Notes: generated by a model not told the origin, from the letters alone. A stretch of 32,000 nt of DNA from Candidatus Saccharimonadota bacterium (GCA_000503875.1 CP006913.1:1080001-1112000); one strand, 5' to 3'. Shown: positions 1 through 30,078, counted from the stretch's first letter. A program made the numbers and translations.

Positions 1-70
1 CCCTATCGGAGTCGAACCGATCACCTCCTGCGTGCAAAGCAGGCGCTCTAGCCAAATGAGCTAAGGGCCC
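1..70 (-). tRNA. tRNA-Ala(UGC), 3' end cut by window edge
   Basis: Revcomp GGGCCCTTAGCTCATTTGGCTAGAGCGCCTGCTTTGCACGCAGGAGGTGATCGGTTCGACTCCGATAGGG folds as a cloverleaf. Anticodon loop is TTTGCAC (TGC) and T-loop is TTCGACT. The last ~4 acceptor nt lie off-window. Confidence 0.9.
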
Positions 71-202: not shown

Positions 203-206
203 AATT

Positions 207-289
207 TGGGGAGAGTAGGATTTGAACCTACGTAGACGTGAGTCGTCAGATTTACAGTCTGATGCAATTGACCGCTCTGCCATCTCCCC
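207..289 (-). tRNA. tRNA-Tyr(GUA), long variable arm, CCA not encoded
   Basis: Revcomp GGGGAGATGGCAGAGCGGTCAATTGCATCAGACTGTAAATCTGACGACTCACGTCTACGTAGGTTCAAATCCTACTCTCCCCA. Anticodon stem is TCAGA/TCTGA, loop CTGTAAA, T-arm GTAGG-TTCAAAT-CCTAC. Confidence 0.9.
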
Positions 290-296
290 ATATATT

Positions 297-582: not shown

Positions 583-656
583 AGCGGATAACGGGACTCG
601 AACCCGTACGAACAGAGCTGAAGTCTGCTATGCTACACCAATTACATCATATCCGC
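583..656 (-). tRNA. tRNA-Gly(UCA), the UGA decoder
   Basis: Revcomp GCGGATATGATGTAATTGGTGTAGCATAGCAGACTTCAGCTCTGTTCGTACGGGTTCGAGTCCCGTTATCCGCT. Acceptor is GCGGATA/TATCCGC, anticodon stem GCAGA/TCTGT, loop CTTCAGC (anticodon TCA), T-arm ACGGG-TTCGAGT-CCCGT. G1:C72, C2:G71, G3:C70 and discriminator U73 are Gly identity elements. Confidence 0.9.
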
Positions 657-1839: not shown

Positions 1840-2262
1840 ATGAAAATTATTTCTTTAATGAGAGAAGAAAAGATAATCAAGGAGGATCTTGTTTTTCATT
1901 ATATAAAAAGTACTGGTCCTTGAGGACAAAACGTCAACAAGAGAAATACCAAGGTACAATTGTTTTTTAATTTCCAACAAAGCAAAAATCTCTCTGACCA
2001 AGAAAAAGTAATGTTACAAGAACTTTATAATGATGATACTATTATAATAATTTCTCATGAAGAAAGATCTCAAAAACAGAACAAAGAATCTGCTATCCAA
2101 AAATTGTTTAATGAAATAAATACAAATTTAATTCCTAGAAAAGAAAGATTAGCAACAAAATTTCCTCGTTCTCAAAAAACAAAAAGATATGTAGACAAAA
2201 CTAGACAATGACAGAAAAAAAAGATAAGAAACAGTAAAATATGCCTTGATAACGAAGAGTAA
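1840..2262 (+). CDS. arfB: ArfB/YaeJ-type peptidyl-tRNA hydrolase (class I release-factor domain, 140 aa)
   Basis: ...HYIKSTGP-[TGA]-GQNVNKRNTKVQL... gives the GGQ motif only if TGA 1921-1923 is Gly. SHEERSQKQNKESA and the basic C-terminal tail (KFPRSQKTKRYVDKTRQGQKKKIRNSK) are typical of 140-aa ArfB. Confidence 0.85.
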
Positions 2263-2316: not shown

Positions 2317-4218
2317 ATGTTACAAAAATATAAAAATCATTTCGCAGAAATTATGAGACAAAAAACCAATTTATCGTTTGATGAGGTTTTTGCTCTTATG
2401 GAGACTCCACCAGAAAATATTTGAGGAGATTTTGCATTTCCTTGTTTTCAATTTTCAAAAACACTTAAAAAAGCACCAAACACCGTTGCCCAAGAATTTG
2501 TAAAAGATTTAAATTCCAAATTTTTTACCAAATTTGAAGCTGTTGGTCCTTATGTAAATGCATATATTAACCCAGAACTATTTATCACTGATGTTTTTTT
2601 AACTCAAGATCCAACACCAGCTGATCGAGAAAACCAAGACACCAAAGTTCTTATAGAATATATGAGCGCGAACCCAAACAAACCACTACATATCGGACAA
2701 GCTAGGAATATTTGTATAGGTGATAGTATTAGAAAAGTATTTCATTATTTATGATATCAAACTCATGCATCAAATTATGGAGATGATAGTTGAGTAAATG
2801 TAGGATATAATATTGTGGGTCATCTTCATTATGGATTACCTATAGAAACAGATAAGAAATTCGATCATTATTGTGGAGAAATTTATACTCAAATGAGAGA
2901 AAAAGACGAAGATCCTCAGTTCAAAAAACTGTTGTCAGAAACTTTAAGAAAGATTGAAGACGGAAAAGATCCTGATGTTTATAGAATTCATCAAGAATAT
3001 ACCAAAAGATGTGCTTTGGAACAAATCAAAACATGTCGAAGAATGAACGCGTCTTTTGATATGATTAACTGGGAAACAGATATTCTTCATATGAAATTTT
3101 TTGCCGAAGCAATAGAACTTCTCAAAGAAAAATGATATGTAAAATACGTCGATGAAGGTGAAGCTACAGGTTGTCGAATTATAGATCTTTCAACATTACC
3201 AGAATATGAAAAGGAAGAAAAAAAATATCAAATTCTTATTAAATCTGATTGAGTAGCAACATACACAGCGAAAGATATTGCTTTTGCATTGTGGAAATTA
3301 GGCTATCTTACAAAAGATTTTTTGTATAAATCATTTACTCATGAAGCAAATGGAAACATTATTTATACAACAACTGGCGAGGCCACAGGAGAAATCAAAG
3401 AAAAATTCTGAAACTATAATATTGCGGTGACTGTTATCGACAATAGACAACTTCATCCACAAGAAGTAGTTAAATCATCTCTCAAGCTACTTGGATATCT
3501 AAATAAAAATAAAGAGTATACACCATTGGGATACGGTGTTGTATATCTTACACCAAAAACATTACTTAGTTTTTGATACCAACTTACCGAAGAAGAAAAA
3601 TTAGAAAAAAGACTTCCTTTCGCGAGTAGAAAAGGATGGACAGTTACTATAGATGAAATGTTGCATATGATCCACGAAAAAGCATATCGAGAAACCAAAG
3701 AACGTAATCCAGAAAAAGATGCAGAACGATTGGATGATGTTTCAGAAAAGATAGCAATCGGATCGTTAAGATTTTTCTTGATAAAAAGCGATATTTCAAA
3801 AGATATTGTATTTGATGTAGATGAAGCATTAGATATGCAATGAGAAAGCTGAGCATATATTCTTTATACATGAGCCAGAATACAAAGTTTAATAGACAAT
3901 AATCCAGAACCCATCCAAAATCTCTCTCCAGAAGAAATAGCAAAATTACTCACAGAACCTGAAGAATTTGCTCTTATCAAAAAAATAGCAGAACGAAACG
4001 AAATAATTTTGACAACTCAACAACAATTGGCGCCACATATTATTTGTAGATATTTGTTGGATATCTCTAAATTGGTAAATAGTTATTATGCAAATATCAA
4101 GATTCTCAAAAGCGAAGATCCCCTCAAGTCTTCAAGAATTTCTCTCTTACAAAAAACACTAGAAAGAATGAAAACAGCCATGGAACTTATAGGTATGAGC
4201 TTCCTAGAAAGAATGTAA
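2317..4218 (+). CDS. argS: Arginine--tRNA ligase (633 aa)
   Basis: Track ORFs 2815.., 3658.. and 4009.. share the frame of ATG 2317. I counted 10 in-frame TGAs. HIGH-type motif ANPNKPLHIGQARN, SD-[TGA]-VATYTAKDIA, and C-terminal ...MSFLERM-TAA. Confidence 0.95.
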
Positions 4219-5212: not shown

Positions 5213-5902
5213 ATGAAAAACAACAAAAAATGATTTACCATGATGGAAATTATGGTTATTGTCGTATTAATTGGACTTTGACTTATTACCGTAATTGAAG
5301 CGCTCAAAAATAGCAATACCTATCTTCAAAAAACAAGACAAAAAATTATTGCTATCAATCTTGCAAGAGAAGGTATGGAACAAATGATAAATATCAGAAA
5401 TACTAATCGACAAAAACGAGCGGGAGAAAAAGAAGAAACTCGACTTAAATTAAATCCATCAATTGACGAAAGTTCAGATTGATTACAAAACGATTTATGG
5501 TTTGGTTCAGGAAATTATATAATTCTGACTACTACTATGGACAATCAACAATATTTTTACGCAAGTGGTGTTAATCAACCGTTGATTATAGATAATGGAA
5601 TAGGAAATACTGGGAATTTGAAATATTCACTTTGTGAAACAGGATGAAAGCGATCAGGTTGTCCCGGACAAATTCCTCAAAGTACAGAAGGATATTTTTT
5701 TAGAAAAATTGAAGGAAAATGACTTTTTAAGAAAGAATCTTCAACCACTGGCGGAGAACCAATAAACTGCCCTACTGGTGAAGATACCAACTGTTCCACC
5801 TCCTCCGCCAAAGAATTCCGTTTCTGCTCAATTGTAGAATACATAGGAAATGGGGTGGGAAAAGTTGAGCTTTGTAGTGTACTTACCAATTTTGAGAAAT
5901 AA
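5213..5902 (+). CDS. Type IV pilin / pseudopilin-like protein with a prepilin N-terminal methylation motif (229 aa)
   Basis: MKNNKK-[TGA]-FTMMEIMVIVVLIGL-[TGA]-LITVIEAL gives the canonical G|FTxxE cleavage/methylation site with E at +5, provided TGA 5231-5233 is Gly. Cys pairs sit in the C-terminal half. TAA at 5900. Confidence 0.8.
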
Positions 5903-5956: not shown

Positions 5957-7285
5957 TTATTGTTTGATAAACTTAGCAGTTACAGAACCGCGATTTTCAT
6001 CAAAAACTTTAATTACATACGTACCCGATCTATATGACGAAACATCAAGTCGATATTCAAAAGCATCAATCTTTTCTGTTGAAACAATTCTTCCAGAAAG
6101 ATCAAATACTTGTAAATGAGAGGCTTTTGCCTTTCCAAAGCTAAGATAAATATAATCTATCGCAGGATTTGGATAAAGGTTAATTTCCTGGTCTTTGATG
6201 TTATCTTCAATACCGGTTATTACAAGATAATTTACCCTAACAGTTTTTGAAGCTGTGCTTATTCCACAAAACGAATTCATGGTTAAAGTAACAGTAAAGT
6301 ATCCATAATACGGATTGTAATTATATGTCGGCGACATCTCATTGGATGTACCACCTCCAGTAACATAGTTGTTACCAAAATGCCAATTATAAGAATATGC
6401 AGTTTTATAATCTGGAATAAAGTTGATATTTGAACCAAATATTGGTCCATATGGACCTTGTCCAGTATCTTGCACATAATTAAAGTTAGCTACTATTGGG
6501 ACAACCCAAATAGAGTCTGTTACATAACATGTTTTATCAGAATAAACCATACCTGCTGTAAGTAAATATTGAGTAGGCGAACTAACTACAACAGAATAAT
6601 TTGAATTGTTTGATAAAACATTAAGAGGATCAGATACATAACTCCAAGCATAGTTATTTGCAAAACCTAAAGCTTGAAGAGAAACACTGTTTCCAAAACA
6701 ATTGAAAGCTGTGTCTTTTACAGAAACATTCGGTCCTGAATAAACGTTAGTTGTTGCGTCAGCAACTTCAGTTCCCGAGGTATAAGTAACTGTAAATGAA
6801 CCTGATGTTGTTGCAATAAACATTCTATTTGCAACATTGTCTCCAGAGAAAGAACCAGTTCCTGGATCAGGAATATAAAGATCCAATAATAAGGTATCTC
6901 CGATACATAAGGATGGTAAAGGGTTTTGAATCCACAAAGATGCTTGAACAATAACTTGATCGGTTGTTGAACAACCATAAATATTTGTTACTGTACACAT
7001 ATATGTTCCCAAAGAAGGAAGCTGTGGTTGCATCAATGGAGAGGTAAAACCATTTGGTCCTTCCCAATAATAAGTATACGTCTGCCCAGGTCCAGGGTCA
7101 TCAGTAGTGATGACCGGCTGGACAAAAGCTTGACCCGAAGATAAATACAAAACCGCAACAACATTTACATCCGGTGAGGATGAAAAACTTTTGGGCGAAG
7201 ACGTATATACCTTCGATAATGGTTGACTTAAACCCAGTAATGGGAAGAAAGCCAAACACATTAGAAGTAATTTGTTTGCTTTCAT
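5957..7285 (-). CDS. Secreted Ig-like repeat protein with a T9SS type A (Por) C-terminal sorting domain (442 aa)
   Basis: Uninterrupted standard-code ORF with no UGA. Probable start is MKANKLLLMCLAFFPLLGLSQP (signal peptide). The C-terminus INLYPNPAIDYIYLSF...LQVFDLSGRIV...LDVSSYRSGTYVIKVFDENRGSVTAKFIKQ fits the Por_Secre_tail consensus (lYPNP..., GxY..., k..k). Confidence 0.85.
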   Translation of the reverse strand: MKANKLLLMCLAFFPLLGLSQPLSKVYTSSPKSFSSSPDVNVVAVLYLSSGQAFVQPVITTDDPGPGQTYTYYWEGPNGFTSPLMQPQLPSLGTYMCTVTNIYGCSTTDQVIVQASLWIQNPLPSLCIGDTLLLDLYIPDPGTGSFSGDNVANRMFIATTSGSFTVTYTSGTEVADATTNVYSGPNVSVKDTAFNCFGNSVSLQALGFANNYAWSYVSDPLNVLSNNSNYSVVVSSPTQYLLTAGMVYSDKTCYVTDSIWVVPIVANFNYVQDTGQGPYGPIFGSNINFIPDYKTAYSYNWHFGNNYVTGGGTSNEMSPTYNYNPYYGYFTVTLTMNSFCGISTASKTVRVNYLVITGIEDNIKDQEINLYPNPAIDYIYLSFGKAKASHLQVFDLSGRIVSTEKIDAFEYRLDVSSYRSGTYVIKVFDENRGSVTAKFIKQ

Positions 7286-7298
7286 AATTTCCTTTTTA

Positions 7299-8582
7299 TT
7301 AGGGTTCATAACAACCATTGCTGTCAATAACAATATAACCAGTTGTAAAACCAGTTATTTGTGTTCCTGAAGCGGGAGGAGTAGCTAATCTTACATCAAA
7401 TTGAGCAGTTCCACCAGAAGATGTTACTGTAACATTTGGTTGATTGTTTGGCGCAACCAAAACATAAGGATGAGTAGATTGAACTAAACTAACCGTATAA
7501 TTTGGAGTACCTCCAACAACAGTTATTGTATAAGTAATAATATCACTACCACAAATAGTTAATGGCATATTGTCTACAATACTAGTAATTGTTGGATATC
7601 CATGAACGGTAAACACAAGAGTATTAGAAGTAGACCAACAAGCACCTTGCTGTGATCTTACAACAATATTATGTGTTCCAACTGTTAATCCAGCGGTTGT
7701 AAACGTAGTTGCTGTTTCACCAGGAACCACAACACCATTATCAGACCATTCATATAAAGTAGCGCCTGTTGTTGTTGCTGTAAAGATAACCGAAGTTCCA
7801 AAACAAGCAGCATCACCAGTAGCATTACTAGTAAGAACGGTTGGGTTAGTACCAATAGCCGAAACAGTGATTCCATTAATTGTAGTATCACAACCAGCAG
7901 TATTAGTAACAACAACATGATAAGTTCCTGTTGATGATAAACCACCTTGAGTAGCGTTTGTTCCTAGTGGATTATTAAGTAAATCATACCACTGAACAGA
8001 AGCAAAAACTCCATTAACGGTAGCGGTTGCATCAGCAGATCCACAATTTTCAGGTGTTGTTGTTATAGTTACGTTTGGTAAAGCATGAACAGTAAACACA
8101 AGAGTATTAGAAGTAGACCAACAAGCACCTTGCTGTGATCTTACAACAATATTATGTGTTCCAACTGTTAATCCAGCGGTTGTAAACGTACTTCCTGTTT
8201 CACTAGGAACCACAACACCATCATCAGACCATTCATATAAAGTAGCGCCTGTTGTTGTTGCTGTAAAGATAACCGAAGTTCCAAAACAAGCAGCATCACC
8301 AGTAGCATTACTAGTAAGAACGGTTGGGTTAGTACCAATAGCCGAAACGGTGATTCCATTAATTGTAGTATCACAACCAGCAGTATTGGTAACAACAACA
8401 TGATAAGTTCCTGTTGATGATAAACTACCTTGAGTAGCGTTTGTTCCTAGTGGGTTATTAAGTAAATCATACCACTGAACAGAAGCAAAAACTCCATTAA
8501 CGGTAGCGGTTGCATCAGCAGATCCACAATTTTCAGGTGTTGTTGTTATAGTTTGGTGAACCCACAATAGTTTTGGGATCAC
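7299..8582 (-). CDS. Secreted Cys-containing Ig-like repeat protein; the body is out of frame with its own signal-peptide ORF
   Basis: 427-aa ORF with no UGA, containing two ~161-aa near-identical repeats (TITTTPENCGSADATATVNG...LVFTVH). A signal peptide MKRFLLLLGMVFTCTIVLGQ starts at 8658 in another frame. The C-terminal ~95 aa are paralogous to the 8687..9592 product. Confidence 0.7.
   Translation of the reverse strand: MIPKLLWVHQTITTTPENCGSADATATVNGVFASVQWYDLLNNPLGTNATQGSLSSTGTYHVVVTNTAGCDTTINGITVSAIGTNPTVLTSNATGDAACFGTSVIFTATTTGATLYEWSDDGVVVPSETGSTFTTAGLTVGTHNIVVRSQQGACWSTSNTLVFTVHALPNVTITTTPENCGSADATATVNGVFASVQWYDLLNNPLGTNATQGGLSSTGTYHVVVTNTAGCDTTINGITVSAIGTNPTVLTSNATGDAACFGTSVIFTATTTGATLYEWSDNGVVVPGETATTFTTAGLTVGTHNIVVRSQQGACWSTSNTLVFTVHGYPTITSIVDNMPLTICGSDIITYTITVVGGTPNYTVSLVQSTHPYVLVAPNNQPNVTVTSSGGTAQFDVRLATPPASGTQITGFTTGYIVIDSNGCYEP
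7587..8552. repeat. Tandem duplication, 2 x 483 nt, near-identical
   Basis: The run ...ggtaaacacaagagtattagaagtagaccaacaagcaccttgctgtgatcttacaacaatattatgtgttccaactgttaatccagcggttgtaaacgta occurs at ~7609 and again at ~8092. The protein repeats differ at only a few residues. Confidence 0.85.
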
Positions 8583-8686
8583 TAGTTTTTGGTGTCGGTT
8601 GTCCTAAAACTATAGTACAAGTAAACACCATTCCGAGCAATAAAAGAAATCTTTTCATTGTTTTATTTTTTTAGTTTATTAATTTT

Positions 8687-9592
8687 TTAGTAACCATAAC
8701 AACCATTGTCATCAACAACAATATAACTAGTTGTAAAACCAGTTACTGTCTGTCCAGGTGCTGGAGGATTTGCCAATCTTACATCAAATTGAGCAGTTCC
8801 ACCAGAGGTTGTTACATTTACACTTGATTGATTGTTTGGACTAACCAAAACATATGGACGAGACGATCCAATTAAACTAACAGTATAATCTGGAGTACCT
8901 CCAGTTACTGTTATAGTATAAGTAATAATCTCTGTCCCACAAAAACTTAATGGTTTGTTGTCCGAAATAGTAAATGTTGGTTGTTGATATACCTCCAAAA
9001 CAATAACTTCGGCGGTATAATCAATTGCACCCAAACAACTTGGGTTTTTAATCATAGCTCTAAATCTTTTAGTAACAGTCGAGCTATTTACCTGTAAAGT
9101 TAGAGAGTGGTTTATCGCTGAATAGTTTGGGTTTGCTGTTAAATTAACCCAGGAACCGGTCCATTCTTGCCACTGATAATCAAAATTTTCATTATAATCA
9201 GCTGCGAGAAAATTTCTTGTTGTATTTGGACAATCTCGAACATTTTGTTGAGTTAAAAGTCCAGAAGCAACACCAGGATTTGGAAATAATTTAACCCATT
9301 TTGTAGCAACAACTGTTGCCCCATTCATAAAATAAACAAATACATCAATCTCTGTAGAAAAAGTTAAAGTAGCTTGATTTCCTACAGCAGTAATACCTAT
9401 CGGATTTGATGTCCAAGAGGTAGAGGTAGCACCACCCAAAGATGCGGTTATAGTAACAACAGTTCCGGGTCTTACATTAATTACGTTGTTTGTACCATCT
9501 TTTGAATATTGGTCTGATGATACAGTAAGTGTTTGACCAAACATTGTTGTTGTTATAAAAACAAACAACAAAAAAACAATTTTTGTTTTCAT
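8687..9592 (-). CDS. Secreted protein (301 aa) sharing a C-terminal domain with the 7299..8582 product
   Basis: Signal peptide MKTKIVFLLFVFITTTMFGQ. No UGA. C-terminus ...ITYTITVTGGTPDYTVSLIGSSRPYVLVSPNNQ...TAQFDVRLANPPAPGQTVTGFTTSYIVVDDNGCYGY parallels the neighbouring gene. Confidence 0.8.
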   Translation of the reverse strand: MKTKIVFLLFVFITTTMFGQTLTVSSDQYSKDGTNNVINVRPGTVVTITASLGGATSTSWTSNPIGITAVGNQATLTFSTEIDVFVYFMNGATVVATKWVKLFPNPGVASGLLTQQNVRDCPNTTRNFLAADYNENFDYQWQEWTGSWVNLTANPNYSAINHSLTLQVNSSTVTKRFRAMIKNPSCLGAIDYTAEVIVLEVYQQPTFTISDNKPLSFCGTEIITYTITVTGGTPDYTVSLIGSSRPYVLVSPNNQSSVNVTTSGGTAQFDVRLANPPAPGQTVTGFTTSYIVVDDNGCYGY

Positions 9593-11078: not shown

Positions 11079-11155
11079 TGGAGCAAGCAACGGGATTTGA
11101 ACCCGCAACCTCTTCCTTGGCAAGGAAGCGCTCTAGCCAATTGAGCTATGCCTGC
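11079..11155 (-). tRNA. tRNA-Gly(GCC), CCA encoded
   Basis: Revcomp GCAGGCATAGCTCAATTGGCTAGAGCGCTTCCTTGCCAAGGAAGAGGTTGCGGGTTCAAATCCCGTTGCTTGCTCCA. Anticodon stem is CTTCC/GGAAG, loop TTGCCAA, discriminator U. Confidence 0.9.
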
Positions 11156-13848: not shown

Positions 13849-13878
13849 TGTTTTCTACTCTAAAAACTAAAGAGATGT

Positions 13879-14934
13879 TCATTTCATCAACCAATCAACC
13901 TCTTTTGGATCTATAATTTGTTTATCAATAAGTCTTTGTGTATATTTTTTGAGGTTAATCATACCAATTAATGAAGAAGTTTCTATAATATTATCAAGTT
14001 GTTCAATTTCTTTCTTTTTAATATTATTTCTTACAGAGGTTGTATTAAGCATTAATTCATAGATACCTACCCTACTTCCCATTTTGCTTTTTACTAACAT
14101 TTGTGATTGCACTCCAATCAACGAAGCTGCCAATCTATCACAAACGCTTTCTTGGATTTCTGGAGGAAAGAAAGAAATAAGTCTATTTACAGTATTTGCG
14201 GCTGAATTTGTGTGTAATGTACTAAATACTAAGTGACCCGTTTCCGCAAGACTCAACGCTGATTCAGCTGTCTCTCTATCACGAATCTCTCCTACAAAAA
14301 TAATATCTGGATCTTCACGTAAAGAAGCCCTCAATGCGTTTGGAAAAGACCACGTATCATGACCTATTTCTCTTTGAGAAATAATACATTTTTTGGGAGA
14401 AAACACGAATTCAATAGGGTCTTCGATAGTAATCATATTTTCAGCTCTTGTTTGATTAATTTCTTCAAGCATTGCTACCAAAGAAGTTGATTTACCAGAA
14501 CCTGTAGGCCCAGTAACCAGATACAATCCTTTCTTTTGATTTAAAACATTTTTTCTAATGCTGTCGGCTATATCAGTAAACATAAGTTCTTCAACTTTTT
14601 TAGCGGTTCCATTAATTTTTCTCATTACAACGCCCAATCTTCCTGTTTTAAAGAAAGCGTTTACTCTATAAGGGATTCCTGTTTTGGATATATAAGCAAA
14701 ATCGGCTTCTTTATCTCATAGAAATTTATCAAATCTTTGTGGATTTCCTGCAAGAAGTTGTCTAAGAATAAGTTCCATGCTTTCATTGCTTAGCTTTCCA
14801 GCTTTTTCTTCTCTAATTACCTCTCCATTTAATCTATAAGCAATACTTTCTCCACCAGAAAGATGAAGATCAGAAATATTTACATTTTTTTCAATAAGAG
14901 AGAGAATTTGCTCTATATCAAAGCTTGCTGCCAT
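13879..14934 (-). CDS. pilT: Type IV pilus retraction ATPase PilT (351 aa)
   Basis: ORFs 13879..14637 and 14716..15006 are in frame and joined through TGA 14716-14718. MAASFDIEQ...DLHLSGGE..., Walker A GPTGSGKST, ITIEDPIEF, LREDPDIIFVGEIRDRETA, ETGHLVFSTLHT. Confidence 0.9.
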
Positions 14935-15083: not shown

Positions 15084-16595
15084 ATGAGAAACAAATTTAT
15101 TCACAAAAGAATTTGAGATATACCAAAGTACAATACGTACGGAGATATGGTAAAATGATGATCAAAAAAGAAAAGTCTGATTAATATTTTTGTAACAATC
15201 CTTTGTATTCTTTGCATAGGATATTTTGGTAAATTTGTTATTCAAGCTGGTCAATCTATTGCTCATACTATAGGACAGTCAACAGTAAATATTGTCAGTA
15301 AAAGATTGGGAAAAGATATGATAGCAGATGAATATGGAAATATAAATGTCATGATTATTGGTTACGGTGGAGCAAATCATGCAGGTTGATACTTGGCAGA
15401 TTCTATTATGGTTGCTTCCTGGAACAAAAAATTAGGAGCGGTAACTATGATATCTGTTCCTAGAGATTTTTATGTAACAAACAAAGAAACAAGAGTTTTT
15501 GGAAGGATAAACGAAGTTTTTTCTAGAGGAGTAGGAAGAAAACATGAATTTGATACAGGAGCAAAAGCTATGATAGGCCAATTAGAAGAAGTGATTGGCG
15601 TTAAAATTCCTTATTATGCACTCATTGATTTTGAAGGATTTAAAAAAGTAATTGATACATTGGGTTGAATAGAAATAGATGTCCCTAAAGTTATTCATGA
15701 TACCACATATCCTACAGAAAATATGGGATATATGACTTTACACGTAAACACAGGTGTTCAGTTATTTAGTGGAGAAAGAGCCTTAATGTATGCAAGGTCT
15801 AGACATTCAACATCTGATTTTGATAGATCTCTAAGACAACAACAAATTATGAAAGCAATAGTTACCAAGTTTATGCAACAAGGACTTAAACCAACAAAAA
15901 TTAAACAATTATACGCAGACTATACGGCCATGGTAAAAACAAACATTTCCTTAGACGAAATGATTGGTTTAGCACAATATGTTGATAATTTAAAAAACAT
16001 ATTTTCATTCTGATTAACGACTGATTGTAGCAATGTAGCACATAGGTATTCATATCCATGATGTTTTTTGTATGCCCCAGATTCGGTTAATTTTTGATGA
16101 GCATCGGTTATATTGCCAGTGTGATCAGATAAAGCCAACCCATCAAATTATCAATATATCAATAACTTTGCCTTTTACGTAATGCACAACCAAGAATATC
16201 TTATAGAAAACCCTCAAATTACTATTTGGAATTGAATAGACAAACAATACGCCCAACAGCAAAAAGTAAAAACTGATGGCCATGCGAATCAGGTTGCCGT
16301 AAAACTCAAAAAATACGCATTTAATATACCTGTTACCAAAAACGCACCTAGCCCATATTTACAGACAGAACTTTATATTTTGGGGACAGGAAATTATGAC
16401 AACACCATAAATATGTTAAAATCTTTGGTAGCTATAGACAATGTTGTTCCTTTTAGCGAAAGATCCCCAGAAGAACCATTTATTTGACCAGAAGAAATTT
16501 ATCAAGAACAACTAAGTTGAACAGAACTTTTGCTTATTTTGGGAAATAAATATGTAGATAGAGCAAAATGAAAAAGATTTGATTATTACAAATAA
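15084..16595 (+). CDS. LytR-CpsA-Psr (LCP) family cell-envelope phosphotransferase (503 aa)
   Basis: N-terminal TM segment. ...GG-[TGA]-YLADSIMVASWNKKLGAVTMISVPRDFYV...INEVF...YYALIDFEGFKKVIDTLG-[TGA]-IEIDVP...LFSGERALMYARSRH. ORFs 15393.. and 15723.. are in frame. TAA at 16593. Confidence 0.85.
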
Positions 16596-16631: not shown

Positions 16632-17360
16632 ATGCTTCCAAAAGAAGTATTAGAGCAAAAAGAATCTATAAAAGGTTTTCTAAAAAATCTATGAATTCCT
16701 GTAGAAAAAATTAAAGACGAAACACTGTTTTTTCAAACATTTGTTCACAAATCATTTGCTGCAGATTACAAACAAATGTTGCTTCACAACGAAAGATTAG
16801 AATTTTTGGGTGATGGTATTCTTTCTGCAGTAACCAACAAACTTTTGTTTATTAATTATCCAGAATACTCGGAAGCAGACCTTACTTTATACAAAATAGC
16901 CTTGGTCAGAGAGGAAACCCTTGCAGAAGTAGCAAAAGAGATAGACTTGGACAAATATATCTTTGTCAGTAAATGAGAAGAAAAAATGCAAGGAAGAAAG
17001 AAAAATGCCATTTTATCAGATTGTTTAGAATCATTATTGTGATTTCTGTATGTAGAACTTGGAAATGAAGTAGTTGAAGCATTTATTACCAAATATATTT
17101 TTAGTAAAATTTGAACTATTAGTAAAGATCCTGTCAAAAGCTACAAAACTATGATCCAAGAATATGTCCAAAAAGAATATAAAGAACTTCCTATATACAA
17201 AGATAATGAATATAGTGTCGACGAAAAAGGAAACCCTATAACTTACCAATCAGAAATATATGTTTGAGACAAAAAAGTAGCTGAAGGACTTGGTTCCAAC
17301 AAAAAGAAAGCACAGGAAGACGCTGCCAAAAAATACTATTGAACAATAAAGAAAGAATAG
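16632..17360 (+). CDS. rnc: Ribonuclease III (242 aa)
   Basis: Signature HNERLEFLGDGIL. ...NAILSDCLESLL-[TGA]-FLYVE..., and a C-terminal dsRBD-like KKKAQEDAAKKYY. TAG at 17358. Confidence 0.9.
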
Positions 17361-17489: not shown

Positions 17490-18455
17490 ATGATTAAGAA
17501 ATTTTCTATTATCAAAAGAGCCTATATCCGATTAACAGTTGGGTGATTACTTCTTATAGGTGCATGGACATTGTTTTTTATGAACATAAGACTTTCAGAA
17601 GAATTTACTGGTGGGGTAAAAATAACTATAGCCGCTACGGTTGATGAACAAAAACTAAACGATTCTTTAACAAAATATCTTATAGACCAAAAATATCCAA
17701 ATAGCAACGTTCTCGTACAAATAAATGACGAAGAAACAGATATTTCTATTAGAACTAGAGTAGAAAATGACGAAAAGGTAAACGAACTATCAAAAGAACT
17801 AAAAACATTTCTTCTCGAAGGAGAATATATCACCTCTCAAGACCAAGTAATAGCACAAACAATAACGGGTCCTAGCGTAGGAGATTATATGAAAACATCA
17901 GCAAGAAATGCTTTACTTGTTGGATTGGCATTGATGGCTATTTACATGCTTTTCTCTTTTGCGGCCATTAGAAAATCAGTATCTCCAAGTATATTGGCTA
18001 TCGTTACTATCGTTACTATGATTTTCGATGTATCTATTCCTGCTGGAGCATTTGGATTCTTAATGATGATCGATCATTCTATAGCTATAGATTCAGTATT
18101 TATTATAGCGATTTTGGCCAATATGTGATATAGTATCAACGATACCATTATTGTTTTCGATAGAATTAGAGAAAATATTCAAAACAAGAACGAAAAGAAT
18201 ATTGTCTATGGAAAATTGTTTGATGATAGTGTCCGACAAACTATGAGAAGATCTTTTGGAACAGTATTTTCAACCTTTCTAGTAATTGTTTGTATGTATA
18301 TTTTTGGAACTGGTGCAGTAAAAGATTTTGCCTTCACTATTGGAATAGGAGTTATTGCTGGATCATATTCATCAATCTTTATATCAGCTCCATTGGCATA
18401 TATTATGATGGGAAAATATAAAAAAGAAAGAAAAGCAATGTCAGAAATCAACTAA
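17490..18455 (+). CDS. secF: Protein-export membrane protein SecF (321 aa)
   Basis: ORFs 17571.. and 18216.. are in frame and joined by TGA 18126-18128, giving ANM-G-YSINDTIIVFDRIRENI, the SecD/SecF GYSxNDTIVxFDRxREN motif. Six TM segments. Confidence 0.85.
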
Positions 18456-18562: not shown

Positions 18563-18964
18563 ATGAACGAATACTGGTATACACTATTTTTAACAATTAG
18601 TTTACTATGATTAATTGGTGTATATATATTACCAAAGAAATACATTTTTCTCCAAGAATCCTGGGGTCTATCTCAAATATTTTTATGGCTGTCCTTACGG
18701 ATGGGTGATTTCTATCTAAATATTTGAGCATTCCCTATAAAAGCATTTATATATCCAAATTGTGGTGCGTGTTGATCAGACTTTCCTAATGAATGAAGCT
18801 TATCTTTATTCATTATTAACTGGTTTTTTCGAATACTAATAACTACATTTATATTCTATTTTCTTCCCAGAAGTTCAAAAAAGAAAAGAGGTATATGGTT
18901 AAATAGTATAGCTATAGTTTGTATGTTTCTTTGATTTCTTTATTTATTAATAAGATTTGATTAA
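18563..18964 (+). CDS. Hypothetical membrane protein (133 aa)
   Basis: MNEYWYTLFLTISLL-G-LIGVYILPKK... has 5 in-frame TGAs and is hydrophobic. TAA at 18962. Confidence 0.5.
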
Positions 18965-18968
18965 TAGC

Positions 18969-19679
18969 ATGATCTATTCGAATCAAAACTACACACTTCT
19001 TCGAAAACCCAATGGAATTGCGTCTACTTTTGGTGGACAGCAATCAATTTTGGATTACTTTGAGGATTCACAACAATTACAAACGATATTAAACAATTCT
19101 GATTTTGATCAATATCAGTCCTATTGCTATCTCGATGGGTATACAAAACAAAATGCAGATACCTTTCTTCATAACCAAACAACACAGTTTACCAAAGAAC
19201 AAGAATATGGTTTATTAAATAGATTAGATAATGACACTGGCGGATTCCTTTATTTTGCCAAAAACATCGAAAGTTACCAGTTCTACAAGGAACAGCAACA
19301 CAAATGAACAATACAAAAAATGTATCTTGCAGAAGTTCACGGCAATCCATTTTTTACATCAAAAGAGAAAATTCTAACTATAGAAACCCCTATTATGCAT
19401 CATCGTTCTGATGACCAAAAAATGATAGTTGTTACTGATGAAAAAGATAAAATTCAATGAAGATGAGAACCTCATCATGTTTCCACCACGATAGAACTTA
19501 TTTCTTATAATCAAGAAAGGAACACATCACTACTTCATGTATTAATACACAAAGGAATCCGCCACCAGATTAGAATACATTGTAAAAGTATATGAGCCCC
19601 GATTGTCGGAGATAAACTATATGGTCCAAAGACACCAATTTCAGACACCCTCCATCTCCGATCAATCGGAATGAAATAA
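18969..19679 (+). CDS. RluA-family pseudouridine synthase (236 aa)
   Basis: GLLNRLDNDTGGFLYFAK (HRLD-type catalytic Asp motif), KGIRHQIRIHCKSI-G-APIVGDKLYG. 4 in-frame TGAs. TAA at 19677. Confidence 0.8.
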
Positions 19680-20402: not shown

Positions 20403-21539
20403 ATGAAACAAAAACCTTTAAAAATTGTTATGGCATGAGGGTGAACAGGCGGACATGTTTTTCCTATTAAAAGTCTTTTGGAATATCTTGCTCAACACAA
20501 AACATTTTCTTCAAACATCAATCATATTTATCGATTTGGCAATAAAAACGCCTTAGAATATACGGTTTTTCAATGATTAAAAAATGCACATAATTGAAAG
20601 AAAAAATGATATGAACTAGATTTTATTTCTATCTATTCATGAAAATATCGTAGAGAAACCCTTCTTAAATCTAGAATAAAAAACGTTAGAGATCTTTTTC
20701 TTTTTGCGATAGGAGTTGTTCAATCTCTTTTCTGGTTAATTTACTACAAAATTGATGTAATTTTTTGTAAGGGTGGTTATATTGCGCTTCCTGTTGTAGC
20801 GGCAGCACGATTATTACGTAAAAAAATTATTGTTCACGAATCAGACACCCATTCGTGATTAGTCAATAAAATAGCATCAAAATTTGCTTGGACAACCTTT
20901 ACATGATTCGATAACGTCCTTCCAAAAGCAAAAACAGTTGGACAAATTATTTCAGAAGAAGTTATAATAGACCAAAAGGAGGCCAAGATGTTTCTCAAAC
21001 AATATCCAGAACTAGATGTTCAAAAGCCATGGATTTTAGTTGTTTGAGGTTCTCAAGGATCTCAAAGACTTTATCAAGCAATTATCAAAGCATTAGAATC
21101 AGATAAAAGCCTTCAAAATGATATACAATTTCTAGTTGTTTTAGGTCTTCTAAATAAAGATCTTAGACCTCAATTTGAAAGATTTCCAAATGTGGTTTGT
21201 TTTGATTTTGTGACCCAAAAAGAGATGGGAATGCTTTGTTATCACTCTGATATCGCTATCACTCGCGCAGGCACAACGTCATTAGCAGAACAAAAGCTCT
21301 ACGATATGAAGCTCTTTATTGTTCCTATTGCTTGGACTCACGACCAATATGACAACGCAAATCGATATCAAAAACACTATAATGATATTCTTATAGACCA
21401 AAAAGATGATACCTTTCTCAACAAGCTTATTATGGAAATAAAAAGACATAAAAATTTCAAAAAAATTCTGACTTCTCAAGATAGGCTAGCTACAATTTCA
21501 AAGGCCAAAGAAGAAATTTGGGAACATATTATTGATTAA
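20403..21539 (+). CDS. murG: UDP-N-acetylglucosamine--N-acetylmuramyl-(pentapeptide) pyrophosphoryl-undecaprenol GlcNAc transferase MurG (378 aa)
   Basis: KIVMA-[TGA]-G-[TGA]-TGGHVFP gives GGTGGH. VHESDTHS-G-LVNK. ILVV-[TGA]-GSQGSQ gives GGSQG. ITRAGTTSLAEQ. HDQYDNA. Confidence 0.9.
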
Positions 21540-21584: not shown

Positions 21585-24500
21585 TTAAAACCCATTCATA
21601 GTCAAAGTAAGAGTACCACTATAACTACCTGGAGCCTGATTAGCAGGTACGTTTACTAATAATCAAACATTATCAGCACTTACCCTACAAATCTTGTTAC
21701 TATCAGGAATCTTTTCAAATATTTCATAAGGCGCACTATAGAATTGTGTAGCTGTTCCATTATCTCCTGTACAAGCTGAGTCACCTTCAACAACAACAGG
21801 ATTATGAGAGATAAGAAGATTACTACCAGAAATAACATTTGATTTTTCATTAATTAGATCAGTTGTCTGAATAGTTAATGTCCACCCTCAATTAATACCT
21901 CTATAATCTTGACAATACCAAGTAGAAGGGAAGGTTCCAGTAAAGGTATAAGGGACACCAATTTTCACCTCTTGAGCATCCATAGTGAGTGATGTTCAGT
22001 AGATACATTCGGTAACTCATCAGGTTATTGTTAGGGTAATATTTCAATTAGTTCAATTTCCAGAAGATCAATCGGTATATTCAATAGTATCAGAAGTAGA
22101 AATATCAGCAATAAAATCGCTATCTAAATCGAACTCAGCATAAACAGTTTTAGTTCAAGTACCGGCAGAAAGAGTTCGAGATTTGGTATCAGAAATAGAT
22201 TCCCAAGCTGATCGGTTAGAATTATCATTAGAAAATCTCATATACGCTATAGCACCAGAGATATTTAAAGTTACATTTTGAGAATTAGTAGAAGCATCAT
22301 CATTATTGATAACAAAAGAGCCAGTTCCTTCTCCGATTGCGAAATATGTAGCGTGATCTGTAGTAAACTCAACATAAGGAATTCAAGCAATATCTATGAC
22401 TGTAGAGGTTCAGTGGAAAGACCAGTTAGAAGATAAATTTTGAGAATAGAATATATCTACAACATCATCAATATTTTTACCTAAAGCAGGCATTCTCACA
22501 GTAACAGACTTACTAAAATCAATTCTCTTGGTAGCATCACCAAATTTAGTGAGAGCAACAACATTATCAACCAATTTAGTACTACCCGTACTCAAAAGAA
22601 CAGGAGCTTGTAAGATACCAGTAAATCATTGTCCATTAGTAGTAAGTAATGTTCAGCTATCATACTGAACTTCTACATTATTTAGATAATAATCTTGAGT
22701 ATAATTAGAAGTTGGCGATTGCATAATAATATCAACTAATATTTCATTAGTAATTCCAGGGGTAAAACTAATAGCATATGTTCAAGTATAATAATTACCA
22801 GATAAAGAATAAAGAGCAAGAGTTATTTTGCCGTCCATTACTTCCTTAGTTAATTCGGTAATAAAATCGATTTGATTAGTAGAGTTTATAACACTACAAT
22901 AGTTATTATTTGTTTCAGTTGATCAATTTGGATACGCTATTATTCCTGGATTATCTGTGCAAATAGAAGATAAAGATAAGTCCCATAAGTTTAATAAATT
23001 ATCAAAAACATTACTTGTTATAGATGATATAAAATTTTTATTTAAAGAAAGCCCATTTAAATTATCAAGTTCATAAAAATTTCAAACATCAATAGAAAGT
23101 AATTGATTATTATCTAAATAAAGATACATTAAAGAAGGAAGTCATGAAAACCCACTAACTTCAATAGAATTTATTTGATTGTAACTTAAATATAATTCGT
23201 TGAGAGAAGAGAGCCCATTAAAGTCTCCAGATTCAATAGAATTTATTTGATTTGTACTTAAATCAAGGAAAATTAAAGAAGAGAGCCCATTAAAGTCTCC
23301 AGATTCAATAGAATTTATTTGATTTGAATTTAAATCAAGATAGGTTAAAGAAGAAAGCAAATTAAAGCTATTAGATCCAATGGAACTTATTTCATTTCAA
23401 TATAAATAAAGATCTGTTAAATTAGTAAGTCCAACAAAATCTCAAATATCAATAGAATTTATTTGATTATTACCTAAATCAAGATAGGTTAAAGAAGAAA
23501 GCAAATTAAAGCTATTAGATTCAATAAAACTTATTTCATTTCAATATAAATAAAGATCTGTTAAAGAAGAAAGATCAGCAAAATCTCAAAGATCAATAGA
23601 ATCTATTTGATTGTTATTTAGATCAAGATAAGTTAAAAAGGAAAGTCAAATAAAACTTCCAGATTCGATAGAACTTATGGCATTTCAATCTAAGCTAAGT
23701 TGGGTTAAATTATTAAGACCAGCAAAATCTCAAACATCAATAGAACTTATTTGATTATATACCACATTTTCTGGACCAATATCTCTAGGTAATTTAAAGT
23801 TTCATAAATAAAGGTCAGTTAAATTATCAAGTCAATAAAAACTTCCAGATTCAATAGAATTTATTTGATTGTATCATAAATTAAGATAAGTCAAAGAGGA
23901 CAGTTCTGAAAACCCATAAGCTTCGATAGAGCTTATTTTATTAATATTTAAGTTAAGCTGAGTTAAATTATCAAGTCCAATAAAATCTCAAACATCAATA
24001 GAAGTTATTTGATTATAATTTAAATAAAGGTTTTTTAATAAAAATAATCAACTAAAACTTCACCTTTCAATTGATGAAATTTGATTTTGTGTTAGGCTGA
24101 GATAATCTAAATTAGTAAGTCCAATAAAATCTCAAACATCAATTCATGTAATTAGATTATTATCCAATAAAAGACCTGTTAAATTAGTGGCTCATAAAAA
24201 CCCTCAACTTTCAATAGAAGTAATCTGATTTTGAGATATTTCAAGTCTAATTAAAGAAGAAAGACCATTAAATGTTCCGGCTTTAATTGTAGTTAGTTTA
24301 TTTTGATCTAAATCAATAATATTTAAATTAGAAAGCCCTAAAAAACTTCAACTTTCTATTGATGTAAGATTTCCACCATCCATATAAAGTCATATCAAAT
24401 TATCAAGTCCAACAAAATCACCAACATCAATTCAAGTTAATGGATTATTTCTTATAGCAAGATATTGTAAATTACTATGATTTATAAAAGAATCAGAAGC

Positions 24501-24656
24501 TATACTAGTAATATTTCTTCAAAATAAATCACAAGAAGTTGCTCATGTCTCACAATTGAAAGTACTGATAACATTACCACTATTTAATTCTTCAGCCCGT
24601 GTAAAAGAAGCAAATATCCCCAAAATAAACAGAGCTGCGATTAGTATTTTTTTCAT
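21585..24656 (-). CDS. Large surface protein (1023 aa): signal peptide, about 20 leucine-rich repeats, middle domains, C-terminal WxL-like module
   Basis: The length is exactly 1024 codons. ORFs 22410.. and 23142.. are in frame. MKKILIAALFILGIFASF. 24-aa LRR units read L..L..L.L..NQI.SIE.GDF.GL, with many of the Gly residues encoded by TGA. The C-terminus ...WYCQDYRGIN-G-GWTLTIQ...LLVNVPANQAPGSYSGTLTLTMNGF resembles the Gram-positive WxL cell-wall-binding domain. Confidence 0.8.
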
Positions 24657-24821: not shown

Positions 24822-25673
24822 ATGAAAAAAACAACAGCGATCAATGTCCAATGAGTGGTTATTGGCATAGTAGAAACTAATAAAGAAAGTTATATTAGTT
24901 TGACTGATATAGCTAAGTATAAAAATTTTTTTCAGCCAGCAGATGTTATTAAAAACTGGCTCAGGTCAAAAAGTACAATAGATTTTTTATGATTATGGGA
25001 GTTTATAAATAACCCAAATTTTAAAGGGGTCGAATTCGACCAGTTTAAAAATGAAGCAGGTAATAATTATTTTGTTTTATCTCCTCAAAAATGGATAGAA
25101 AAAACACAAGCAAAATGATTAATAACAAAATCATGAAGATATTGATGATGAACATTTGCTCATAAAGACATTGCTATAGAATTTGCTAGTTGGATTTCGG
25201 TAGAGTTTAGGCTTTACCTTATCAAAGAATTCCAAAGACTCAAAGAACAAGAGACCAAATCATTAGACCGAGACGTCAAGAGATTTCTCACTAAGATGAA
25301 CTATAGAATCCACACAGACGCCATCAAAGATAATCTTATTCCCAAAGAACTTTCTCAGGATGAGATAAACCATATTTACGCTGATGAGGCAGATGTACTA
25401 AATAAGGCGCTATTTGGACAAACAGCAAAACAACGAAAAGATCAGAATCTGCATAAAAAATGCGACAGTCCTGTAAAGGGAAATATGAGAGACTATGCAA
25501 ATATAGAACAATTAATAATCTTAGCAAACTTAGAAAGTATCAATGCAGAGTTTATAAAAATGTGACTAGAGCAACCCAAACGTCTTCAAATATTAAACCA
25601 AACAGCAATTAGTCAAATGAAATCATTGATCCAAAACCAGAATTTAGAAAATATAAATAGGCCAAATTCTTAA
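24822..25673 (+). CDS. KilA-N domain-containing DNA-binding protein (283 aa)
   Basis: ...ESYISLTDIAKYKN...VIKNWLRSKSTIDFL-G-LWEFINNPNFKGVEFDQFKNEAG...KS-G-RY-G-G-G-TFAHKDIAIEFASWISVEFRLYLIKEFQRLK...MNYRIHTDAIKDNLIP...ADVLNKALFGQTAKQ. This is a close match to the widespread KilA-N family pattern. Confidence 0.85.
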
Positions 25674-28765: not shown

Positions 28766-29704
28766 ATGAAACAAGCATATGTAAGAGGGTATTATGGATA
28801 CAAAAACTTTGGAGATGAATTGCTTTTTTTTGGAGTAATTGATTGGATTTTTTCTCATTATCCAGAAATTCAAGAGCTTGTTATAGAGGTAAACAACAAA
28901 ACCTGGATGGAATATCGAGTCAAAAAAAACTACCAGGAATACACTTCCAAAGAACAATATCATAAGATTTCTTTTGTGGAAATTAAACAACATCGTTGGA
29001 AATATCTTACCCATATTATTAGTTTGTTGGGCTTTGGAAAATATAGATCGTATTTCAAATTCTTTGGTTGATGAGAGGTTCTTAGCGATGAAAGAGATTT
29101 TCCTCATGATGGACGAAACATTCCTCTTCTTTTTGGAACAACAGTGAGAAAATGAAAATTTATGCTTCTTGGAGGAATAGGAACACCCAGAAAAACAAGA
29201 ACAAAATTGCTTTATGATATATTACTTCCCAAAGCAGAATGAATTATAACAAGAGAAGAAACTTCGTATAAAACAGCGTTAAAACGAAATAAACACACAG
29301 CTTCCTATCAAGATTTTAGTCAAAATATTATAGAAAATACAGCTTGTAAAAAACAAGATACTTCTCCATCATACGTGCTTATAAACTGCAATTTAAAATC
29401 TCGAAATCCTGACACAAAAGAATCTATTGTTGAATTTTGCAAGACTCATGCTCAACACAAAAAAATCTTTTTTCCTTGTGATATGAACGATGATATTTAT
29501 TGCTTTGCGGATCTTCAACAAGACATTCCTGATTTAGAAATGTATGATCGAACCAAGCATTCATTACAAGATTCTCTTTGTCTTTTTAAAGGTTCAACGG
29601 CAGCAATTTGAGCAAGACTTCATTTTCTTTTACCGCTCAAATTGTACAAAAAAGATTTTACAGCAATTAAATACGCAGAAAAAATATATAAGATGATTGA
29701 TTAG
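28766..29704 (+). CDS. Polysaccharide pyruvyl transferase family protein (CsaB-like, 312 aa)
   Basis: MKQAYVRGYYGYKNFGDELLFFGVI... (GyyG..N.GDe motif). FKFFG-[TGA]-[TGA]-EVLSDE gives GGGevlsD. ORF 29375.. is in frame. The TAG at 29702 overlaps the stop of the convergent gene. Confidence 0.7.
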
Positions 29705-30078
29705 AATCCATTCATAGTCAACGTAAGCGTACCACTATAATTACCTGGAGCCTGATTAGCAGGGACATTTACTAATAATCAAACATTATCAGCGCTTACT
29801 TTACAAATTTTATTACTTCCTGAAGCTTTTGCAAAGAGTACATAAGGTGCATTATAAAATTGTGTAGCTGTTCCATTATCTCCTGTACAAGATGAATCAC
29901 CTTCAACGACAACAGGATCATGAGAGATTAAGAGATTGCTACCAGAGATAACATTTGATTTTTCATTAGTTAAATCAGTTGTTTGGATAGTTAATGTCCA
30001 TTCTGAAGTAATACCTCTATAATCTTGACAATACCAAGCAGAAGGAAAGGATTCCAGTAAAGGTATATGGAATACCAA
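29701..30078 (-). pseudogene. Detached C-terminal WxL-like module of the delta-60-repeat protein, +1 out of frame with the body
   Basis: ...FPSAWYCQDYRGITSEWTLTIQ...LLVNVPANQAPGNYSGTLTLTMNGF-TAA is paralogous to 21585-22000. Compared with the paralogue there is one extra base at 30051 (ggattcc versus ggttcc). Confidence 0.65.

Follow-up and report, generated by a model that had tools for sequence, protein, structure and literature searches.

The tRNA gene at positions 583 to 656 of CP006913.1:1080001-1112000, a stretch of 32,000 nucleotides (nt; hereafter the window), is almost certainly the glycine tRNA with anticodon UCA of Absconditabacteria (SR1), in an organism, RAAC1_SR1_1, whose UGA codons mean glycine and whose CGA and probably CGG codons are tryptophan-like. 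Judged from codon usage and alignments, UGA is an ordinary glycine sense codon in the window, as the initial annotation had proposed. In this organism, glycyl-tRNA synthetase (GlyRS) would charge tRNA(UCA) with glycine through the acceptor stem and U73 despite A36, and the charged tRNA-Gly(UCA) would pair with UGA. UGA would then serve as an ordinary glycine codon, the most used one, and translation would stop only at UAA and UAG. Release factor 2 (RF2) would be absent, and a further tRNA would presumably read CGA as tryptophan.

Stop-to-stop open reading frames (ORFs) of at least 100 amino acids (aa) cover 15 kb under translation table 11 and 44 kb with TGA read through, and freeing TAG instead of TGA brings little gain. 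The read-through ORFs are full-length proteins with good Pfam matches, including a helix-turn-helix protein. Outside a block of three TGA-free genes at 5957-9592, which is treated below, 238 TGA occur in 8,326 codons (28.6 per 1000, next to 23.8 for GGA and 6.6 for TGG), which makes TGA the commonest glycine codon of the window, with 37% of the glycine codons outside that block. Glycine makes up 4.8% of residues when TGA is left out and 7.6% when it is counted; TGA as tryptophan would give 3.5% tryptophan. Every long conserved gene had been described as chopped by in-frame TGA, which holds with qualifications; PilT and SecF have only two TGA each, and four ORFs (a 136-aa ORF and the three genes of 5957-9592) have none. 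The merged genes do end in TAA or TAG, but by construction; corroboration comes from the arginyl-tRNA synthetase (ArgRS), whose end (...ERM) coincides exactly with the end of solved homologues.

The meaning of TGA was read from proteins in which it was masked as X and which were aligned to standard-code homologues (solved structures and phage proteins). In 23 confidently aligned TGA columns, the homologues have glycine in 18, alanine in 2, glycine or alanine in 2, histidine or tyrosine in 1, and tryptophan in none. The proteins and repeats concerned are as follows.

1840..2262, plus strand: ArfB-like peptidyl-tRNA hydrolase with RF-1 domain (Pfam, structure alignment); X, TGA 1921-1923, is the first G of GGQ in 3/3 solved ArfB/YaeJ chains.
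2317..4218, plus strand: ArgRS, 10 TGA and 6 CGA (Pfam, Protein Data Bank (PDB) alignments, 120 relatives); in solved structures, X146, X159, X312 and X509 are G in 3/3, X365 is G, X512 is A/G/A, and X519 is H/H/Y.
15084..16595, plus strand: LytR-CpsA-Psr (LCP) family protein, 14 TGA (Pfam, PDB); X of TLGXIEIDVP is G in 3/3 aligned entries, two of which are the same protein.
16632..17360, plus strand: RNase III, 6 TGA (Pfam, PDB); in Drosha RNase III domains, X115 is G and X136 is G/A.
20403..21539, plus strand: MurG, 9 TGA and 3 CGA (Pfam, structure alignment, relatives); in three solved structures, X14, X152 and X215 are G in 3/3, and X12 and X168 are A in 3/3.
21585..24656, minus strand: leucine-rich repeat (LRR) surface protein, 39 TGA (Pfam, repeat columns); in 17 units of 24 residues, column 13 has 7 TGA and 5 G, and column 17 has 4 TGA and 8 G.
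24822..25673, plus strand: KilA-N domain protein, 8 TGA and 2 CGA (Pfam, phage homologue alignment); in two standard-code phage homologues with about 60% identity, 7/8 TGA are G,G, and the eighth is a one-residue insertion.
30017..31990, minus strand: DUF5122 beta-propeller repeat protein, 47 TGA (Pfam, repeat columns); in five propeller repeats, TGA and GGN-coded G occupy the same columns.

No relative of the KilA-N protein was found in the PDB, and the phage homologues served as its outgroup. All six sites at which the initial annotation had placed TGA on invariant glycines do read TGA, namely, 1921-1923 in ArfB, 20436-20438, 20442-20444 and 21045-21047 in MurG, 5231-5233 in a prepilin-like protein, and 25143-25151, with three in a row, in the KilA-N protein. 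Its core claim that UGA is a glycine sense codon holds in the outgroup columns and in the repeats, where TGA and GGN alternate, and the check that it had suggested, the consensus residue opposite TGA in ArgRS and MurG orthologues, gives mainly glycine and no tryptophan. Three observations weigh against this reading. ArgRS codon 519 (YTXAR) lies opposite a conserved H/H/Y of solved ArgRS, four further TGA lie opposite alanine or mixed alanine/glycine columns, and several more are in variable regions where the alignment is uninformative; the match to glycine is thus strong and not perfect.

Database relatives provide a further line of evidence. The 120 closest database proteins were collected for each of ArgRS and MurG (P0001-P0240), and tryptophan is found in at least three conserved glycine-type columns in 99/120 ArgRS relatives (83%) and 108/120 MurG relatives (90%), which were evidently translated with table 4. 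Since the TGA of such relatives appears as W, any G in them must be GGN. In these relatives G and W alternate in the same columns, both at TGA positions and at GGN positions of the window, and therefore TGA and GGN are synonymous. Columns with TGG in the window are never G in the ArgRS and MurG relatives. Where relatives have G at a TGA column, this was given no weight in favour of glycine, because many of them are table 25 translations and the argument would be circular.

The tRNA itself is one of three complete tRNA genes in the window. The tRNA genes, complete or partial, are listed below.

1..70, minus strand: 5' part of tRNA-Ala(UGC), truncated at the edge of the window (Rfam partial tRNA; full gene in locus L004).
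206..290, minus strand: tRNA-Tyr(GUA), next in the conserved cluster UCA-Tyr-Ala(UGC)-Arg(UCU)-Glu(CUC) (ARAGORN, Rfam).
583..656, minus strand: tRNA(UCA) of the Absconditabacteria type, here called type A (ARAGORN, Rfam, family conservation).
11079..11155, minus strand: canonical tRNA-Gly(GCC) (ARAGORN, Rfam), with G1:C72, C2:G71, A3:U70, G4:U69 and U73.

ARAGORN places a tRNA of 74 nt, whose anticodon is tca, on the minus strand at 583-656, and the general tRNA model of Rfam (RF00005) spans it in full length (60.8 bits, E value 5e-11). Its RNA sequence is GCGGAUAUGAUGUAAUUGGUGUAGCAUAGCAGACUUCAGCUCUGUUCGUACGGGUUCGAGUCCCGUUAUCCGCU. The acceptor stem has 7 bp with G1:C72, C2:G71, G3:C70 and G4:C69, followed by discriminator U73; the T stem has 5 bp, the variable loop has 4 nt, CCA is not encoded, and the anticodon loop is CUUCAGC, with G37 next to A36. 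The cloverleaf described earlier, with its length, anticodon, three acceptor pairs and discriminator, is thus borne out, with the minus strand added, and the ARAGORN run that had been suggested for this region returns a canonical tRNA(tca) that is not of the tRNA-Trp type (U73) and that fits the general model better than tRNA-Sec. By the criteria for tRNA-Gly(UCA) of Shulgina and Eddy (2021) after Giege (1998), canonical tRNA structure, anticodon, acceptor pairs, U73, and SR1-type sequence and synteny are all present.

The description of these features as the bacterial GlyRS identity set was right for the acceptor and discriminator but overstated. The identity of Escherichia coli tRNA-Gly includes the anticodon determinant C36, which is necessarily lost in the tRNA(UCA), where A36 stands in its place, and the G37 next to this A36 is unusual; both points count against a glycine identity. 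In addition, pair 3:70 of the acceptor cannot be regarded as a constant element of glycine identity in this lineage, since the organism's own tRNA-Gly(GCC) has A3:U70 and G4:U69 and so lacks G3:C70. A3:U70 is also found in some Gracilibacteria tRNA-Gly(GCC) genes. G37 next to A36 is constant in at least 28 SR1-type tRNA(UCA) genes, and tRNAs reading U-starting codons usually carry a modified A37. The G37 of the SR1-type tRNA(UCA) may have a role in reading-frame maintenance or in discrimination against UGG.

By protein identity, the window is from the Absconditabacteria (SR1) genome RAAC1_SR1_1. Outside the masked positions, its MurG and ArgRS do not differ from proteins of candidate division SR1 bacterium RAAC1_SR1_1 (P148_SR1C00001G...), which agrees with, and sharpens, the earlier placement in the Absconditabacteria or Gracilibacteria. 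The window also matches DPJE01000001.1 (GCA_003543185.1, 190 kb), which belongs to a later, automated re-assembly of that genome (UBA MAG), and the European Nucleotide Archive (ENA) assembly of SRR944699 (PRJNA167727, sediment), and part of it recurs in a Logan contig from the independent run SRR6485897. The gene calls of DPJE01000001.1 are fragmented as under the standard code, whereas those of the ENA contig are full length. Comparison of loci L002 and L005, with fragmented calls, to L001 and L004 supports the earlier statement that a standard-code annotation is wrong here. A 2013 PNAS report by Campbell and colleagues is said to have described tRNA-Gly(UCA) and UGA as glycine in SR1, or Absconditabacteria. 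The closed RAAC1_SR1_1 genome has 1,177,760 bp, a G+C content of 0.31, and ORFs that are extremely short when code 11 is applied (Kantor et al. 2013 mBio, PMC3812714), and its tRNA-UCA was described as nearly identical to those of other SR1 genomes, with UGA most likely glycine (Kantor et al. 2013, PMC3812714). The assignment of UGA to glycine here is a rediscovery, because that study reported both for the same organism, with the same conserved-position argument and the same fragmentation under code 11, and nothing essential differs. What is added is the strand, the organism, two types of tRNA(UCA), support for CGA as tryptophan, the extent of table 4 mistranslation, and the TGA-free block.

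Translation table 25, as named in the initial annotation, is correct for UGA as glycine but does not appear to be the whole code. With respect to genetic code 25, TGA lies at glycine columns and termination uses TAA and TAG only, whereas the other codons are not all standard. CGA is very probably a tryptophan codon in this organism, as its alignments suggest, and CGG is probably one too. The window contains 44 CGA (5.3 per 1000), 3 CGG, 55 TGG and 147 AGA. MurG codon 44, a CGA, lies opposite a conserved tryptophan in MurG of E. coli, A. baumannii and P. aeruginosa (3/3 structures), and codon 136 lies opposite R,W,R in the three structures. The KilA-N CGA sites are opposite W,W and F,W in the two phage homologues. 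In the solved ArgRS structures, the CGA codons face F,F,F (codon 560), Y,H,Y (codon 241) and F,L (codon 287), and two CGA in the C-terminal domain of the LRR protein align with TGG in the paralogue at 30017-31990.

The 120 ArgRS relatives show the same tendency. At the TGG columns of the window, which are invariant W in outgroups, they have only W (193) and R (167). At the CGA columns they have R77/W43 at codon 241, R82/W37 plus one Y at codon 287, and R74/W31 plus 15 Q/V/L/T at codon 471, while the 18 AGA/AGG/CGT columns of ArgRS show no W in any of the 120. The R/W pattern is the same in the MurG relatives. Several points speak against CGA or CGG as tryptophan. The window offers few CGA to judge by (44 codons); some of them face non-aromatic residues, with Q/G opposite propeller codon 266 and E/A/R opposite ArgRS codon 458; neither a tRNA(UCG) nor a tRNA(CCG) with tryptophan identity (G73, no A20) was found in the window, its flanks or the type A loci listed (at least 28); and the 3 CGG codons, counted outside the 5957-9592 block, include none in a conserved column. 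The code resembles the extended Absconditabacteria code predicted by Codetta, with UGA as glycine plus CGA/CGG as tryptophan (Shulgina and Eddy 2021, PMC8629427), in that CGA is nearly as frequent as TGG, lies at tryptophan or aromatic columns and alternates with TGG, and AGA is the main arginine codon. The extended code, itself a computational inference, also covers CGG, whereas the window is informative for CGA only. Because CGA behaves as tryptophan, a table 25 translation would put arginine for tryptophan at about 5 codons per 1000.

Other readings of the same data were considered. UGA could be read as tryptophan by a tRNA-Trp(UCA), as in the Mycoplasma-like table 4. TGA as sense restores the ORFs equally well in this case, most database relatives are translated so, and one is labelled 'gcode 4'. 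The table 4 codes of Mycoplasmatales, Entomoplasmatales and several insect endosymbionts also share with the window the change of UGA from stop to sense, the low-G+C reduced genome and the restored ORFs. However, they reach tryptophan through a tRNA-Trp with a changed anticodon, whereas here glycine would be inserted by a dedicated extra tRNA with glycine-type acceptor features. The tRNA has U73 and G1:C72 in place of the G73 and A/G1:U72 of tRNA-Trp (criteria quoted in PMC8629427), no W stands opposite the 23 aligned TGA columns in standard-code outgroups, a tryptophan content of 3.5% is implausible, and true tryptophan columns never alternate with G, so that this reading is extremely unlikely. 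It is still less likely, to the point of being negligible, that 583-656 is a selenocysteine (Sec) tRNA and the TGAs are Sec codons. ARAGORN prints 'tRNA-SeC' for the gene, but it does so for any tca anticodon, since the anticodon alone determines the label. Bacterial tRNA-Sec is built on an 8/5 architecture, with a long variable arm and G73, whereas in this tRNA of 74 nt the acceptor and T stems are of the 7/5 kind, the variable loop has 4 nt and the discriminator is U73. In Rfam, too, the general tRNA model outscores tRNA-Sec, as overlapping matches in one clan are reduced to the best. Moreover, 238 in-frame TGA in about 8300 codons is far above any selenoproteome, and the columns are those of glycine, not of cysteine or Sec.

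The recoding could also be only apparent, produced by a chimeric assembly, pseudogenes or sequencing errors together with an incidental suppressor tRNA, and the TGA-free, higher-G+C 3.6-kb block at 5957-9592 at first looked foreign or mis-joined. However, the same sediment data were assembled three times, once as the manually closed genome, with concordant results; the independent run SRR6485897 contains part of the region as well, and other species, from different samples, have the block in the same syntenic place. The TGAs keep to the reading frame, lie on conserved glycine columns and are common to relatives, and there is scarcely any chance that the recoding is an artefact. Less remote, though improbable, is the view that the code is exactly table 25 of the National Center for Biotechnology Information (NCBI), with CGA as arginine and the R and W of relatives as real substitutions between arginine and tryptophan. 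The NCBI translation of RAAC1_SR1_1 does have R at CGA positions, and some CGA columns are opposite E/A/R/Q in outgroups. In contrast, none of the 18 AGA/AGG/CGT columns of ArgRS contains W, whereas the share of W in CGA columns 241, 287 and 471 is 30-36%, and R makes up 46% at TGG columns that are invariant tryptophan in outgroups. Both KilA-N CGA sites have a W counterpart in standard-code phage homologues, the residue opposite MurG codon 44 is W in 3/3 structures, and TGG alone would give a low tryptophan content of 0.66%. The preferred interpretation is still the Absconditabacteria tRNA-Gly(UCA), with UGA as glycine and CGA as a tryptophan-like codon.

The distribution of related tRNA genes was investigated by scanning species-representative genomes with the pattern GCGG...YTTCA...GGTTCRANNCC......CCGC, in which the discriminator is free, followed by an ARAGORN filter that left at least 67 tRNA(tca) genes. 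About 45% of the raw pattern matches were false positives (tRNA-Glu(UUC), tRNA-Val(CAC) and tRNA-Leu), which arise when YTTCA matches one position away from the anticodon and which were removed by ARAGORN. That pairs 1-4 never vary in the family carries no weight, because GCGG/CCGC is imposed by the pattern, but U73 is present in all listed genes of types A and B (at least 62) although the discriminator was unconstrained. Two types were distinguished.

Type A, at least 28 genes: 74 nt, no encoded CCA, loop CUUCAGC (G37), canonical D arm.
Type B, at least 34 genes: 79 nt, encoded CCA, loop CUUCAAC (A37), atypical D arm.

The tRNA of the window is of type A, and identical copies occur in at least 8 other species-representative genomes. 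Among the matches listed, all metagenome-assembled genomes (MAGs) labelled Absconditabacteria or SR1 carry type A, all labelled Gracilibacteria (at least 22) carry type B, and MAGs labelled 'Peribacteria' are found in both groups. The neighbours of type A are tRNAs for Tyr-Ala(UGC)-Arg(UCU)-Glu(CUC)-(Leu), in a conserved cluster, and those of type B are tRNA-Gly(GCC) and tRNA-Arg(GCG). Among the matches listed there are 14 distinct type A sequences, which keep 21/21 stem pairs, with compensatory double changes at 3 pairs and an invariant anticodon loop. Example loci are L007, L016 and L039 for type A and L008, L009 and L012 for type B. The use of code 25 by Gracilibacteria was reportedly described by Rinke and colleagues in 2013. 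The tRNA(UCA) of Gracilibacteria (BD1-5/GN02), the other code 25 lineage (Hanke 2014, PMC4032931), shares with that of the window the anticodon UCA, the GCGG...CCGC acceptor, U73 and the same reassignment. However, it is a separate gene, differing in its 79 nt, encoded CCA, atypical D arm, A37 and tRNA neighbours.

Isolated tRNA(UCA) genes with a glycine-like GCGG/CCGC acceptor were also observed at L022 4985-5055, L054 1799-1871, L082 269-341, L069 4566-4638 and L041 6118-6195, in MAGs labelled Akkermansia, Archangium, Gemmatimonadales and Woesearchaeota and in a gammaproteobacterial MAG, where the discriminator is G73. Two of these tRNAs have the loop CCUUCAAAG, which is one base from the loop of tRNA-Gly(UCC). 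The isolated genes could be UGA-suppressor derivatives, contamination or tRNAs of mobile elements.

The block without TGA consists of three surface-protein genes on one strand.

5957..9592, minus strand: TGA-free three-gene block, 0 TGA against 98 GGN.
5957-7333, minus strand: Por_Secre_tail protein of 458 aa, type IX secretion system (T9SS) type (Pfam).
7299-8582, minus strand: Ig_7 repeat protein of 427 aa (Pfam).
8687-9592, minus strand: 301-aa protein (ORF).

The block proteins carry signal peptides, and the G+C content of the block is 0.35-0.38. Sorting domains of the T9SS type are mostly found in the Fibrobacterota-Chlorobiota-Bacteroidota group. The closed RAAC1_SR1_1 genome has the block as G1009-G1011, as deduced from protein names and locus tags. 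The order PilT ... block ... prepilin/ArgRS ... L20 recurs on a contig of 142 kb from a different sample, where the block has 44% identity, and also in a third lineage; the orthologous blocks are found in L126 (5213-9320), L127 (33-2615) and L129-L131. Two orthologous blocks have TGA against GGN at 0/127 and 0/71, with 30-60% TGA in the adjacent genes, and the blocks of the three lineages together have 0 TGA against 296 GGN. Further strains are also TGA-free in the block, and the gene content of the block varies between close strains. For other amino acids, its codon usage is native-like, at a distance of 0.122 from the rest of the window (null median 0.095, 95th percentile 0.158). Fully conserved tryptophan columns in the block are TGG in every species and never CGA, and opposite the few CGR codons of the block stand Q, H, A, N and, once, AGG. 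As these alignments read, CGR in the block is arginine-like, the opposite of the rest of the genome, and the block resembles an island of standard code within a recoded genome. Full-length homologues numbered only 8 among 5.8 billion proteins, and the two with usable flanking DNA (P0251 and P0252) adjoin TGA-rich SR1-type genes.

A chimeric assembly of the block was rejected, as the curated closed genome has it and other species share its position, and recent horizontal transfer was rejected in view of the conserved synteny in three lineages and the native-like codon usage. Code-11-compatible phages of recoded lineages are known (PMC10746230); no viral relatives of the block were found, and a phage origin is unsupported. 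No literature report of a comparable chromosomal standard-code island was found. The block may be kept readable in the standard code by selection, through exchange with or expression in standard-code cells, the host or prey of a presumably episymbiotic bacterium, although we consider this rather unlikely. Another explanation, that translation of surface proteins at very high expression selects strongly against the two reassigned codons, is doubtful: the block mildly prefers U-ending codons, but the case for high expression is weakened because L20 and IF3 of the relative in L126 use TGA. A further candidate is that the cassette has been replaced repeatedly from standard-code donors that have not been sampled.

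The remaining genes named in the window are listed below.

5213..5902, plus strand: type IV prepilin-like protein (sequence), with TGA at the -1 glycine of the leader cleavage motif KK-X-FTMMEI.
13867..14934, minus strand: PilT-type ATPase, 2 TGA (Pfam T2SSE, 4e-48).
17490..18455, plus strand: SecF, 2 TGA and 2 CGA (Pfam).
18957..19679, plus strand: RluA-family pseudouridine synthase, 4 TGA (Pfam).

The prepilin-like protein has no Pfam match, and its motif is one that we take to be the G-1/F+1 prepilin cleavage motif. In the window and its flanks, the ArfB-like RF-1 domain protein is the sole release-factor-like protein. The catalytic GGQ of this ribosome-rescue factor is written TGA-GGA-CAA. 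The overlapping minus-strand ORFs 29701-30279 and 30017-31990 look like one gene with a frameshift near 30.0-30.3 kb. The propeller ORF stops where its paralogue, the LRR protein at 21585-24656, enters a shared C-terminal domain (WYCQDYRG...TLTMNGF), which is encoded by the other ORF, 29701-30279. The split could reflect a pseudogene, a programmed shift or a sequencing error.

These results have consequences for database records and for the biology of the recoded lineages. GCA_003543185.1 is labelled only 'Patescibacteria group bacterium' and has fragmented gene calls. About 83-90% of the closest ArgRS and MurG relatives have W at glycine positions, and essentially all have R at the tryptophan CGR codons of the lineage, errors that profiles and trees inherit. 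CGA as tryptophan would support the computational prediction of 2021 and would affect about 0.5% of residues, including invariant tryptophans of MurG and ArgRS. In this organism, an ArfB-like protein of the release-factor family would itself depend on read-through of a former stop codon. The presence of two clearly different tRNA(UCA) genes in different contexts bears on whether UGA as glycine had one origin or two. If selection maintains the TGA-free block, it would offer a new handle on the genetic interaction of recoded bacteria with their standard-code neighbours.

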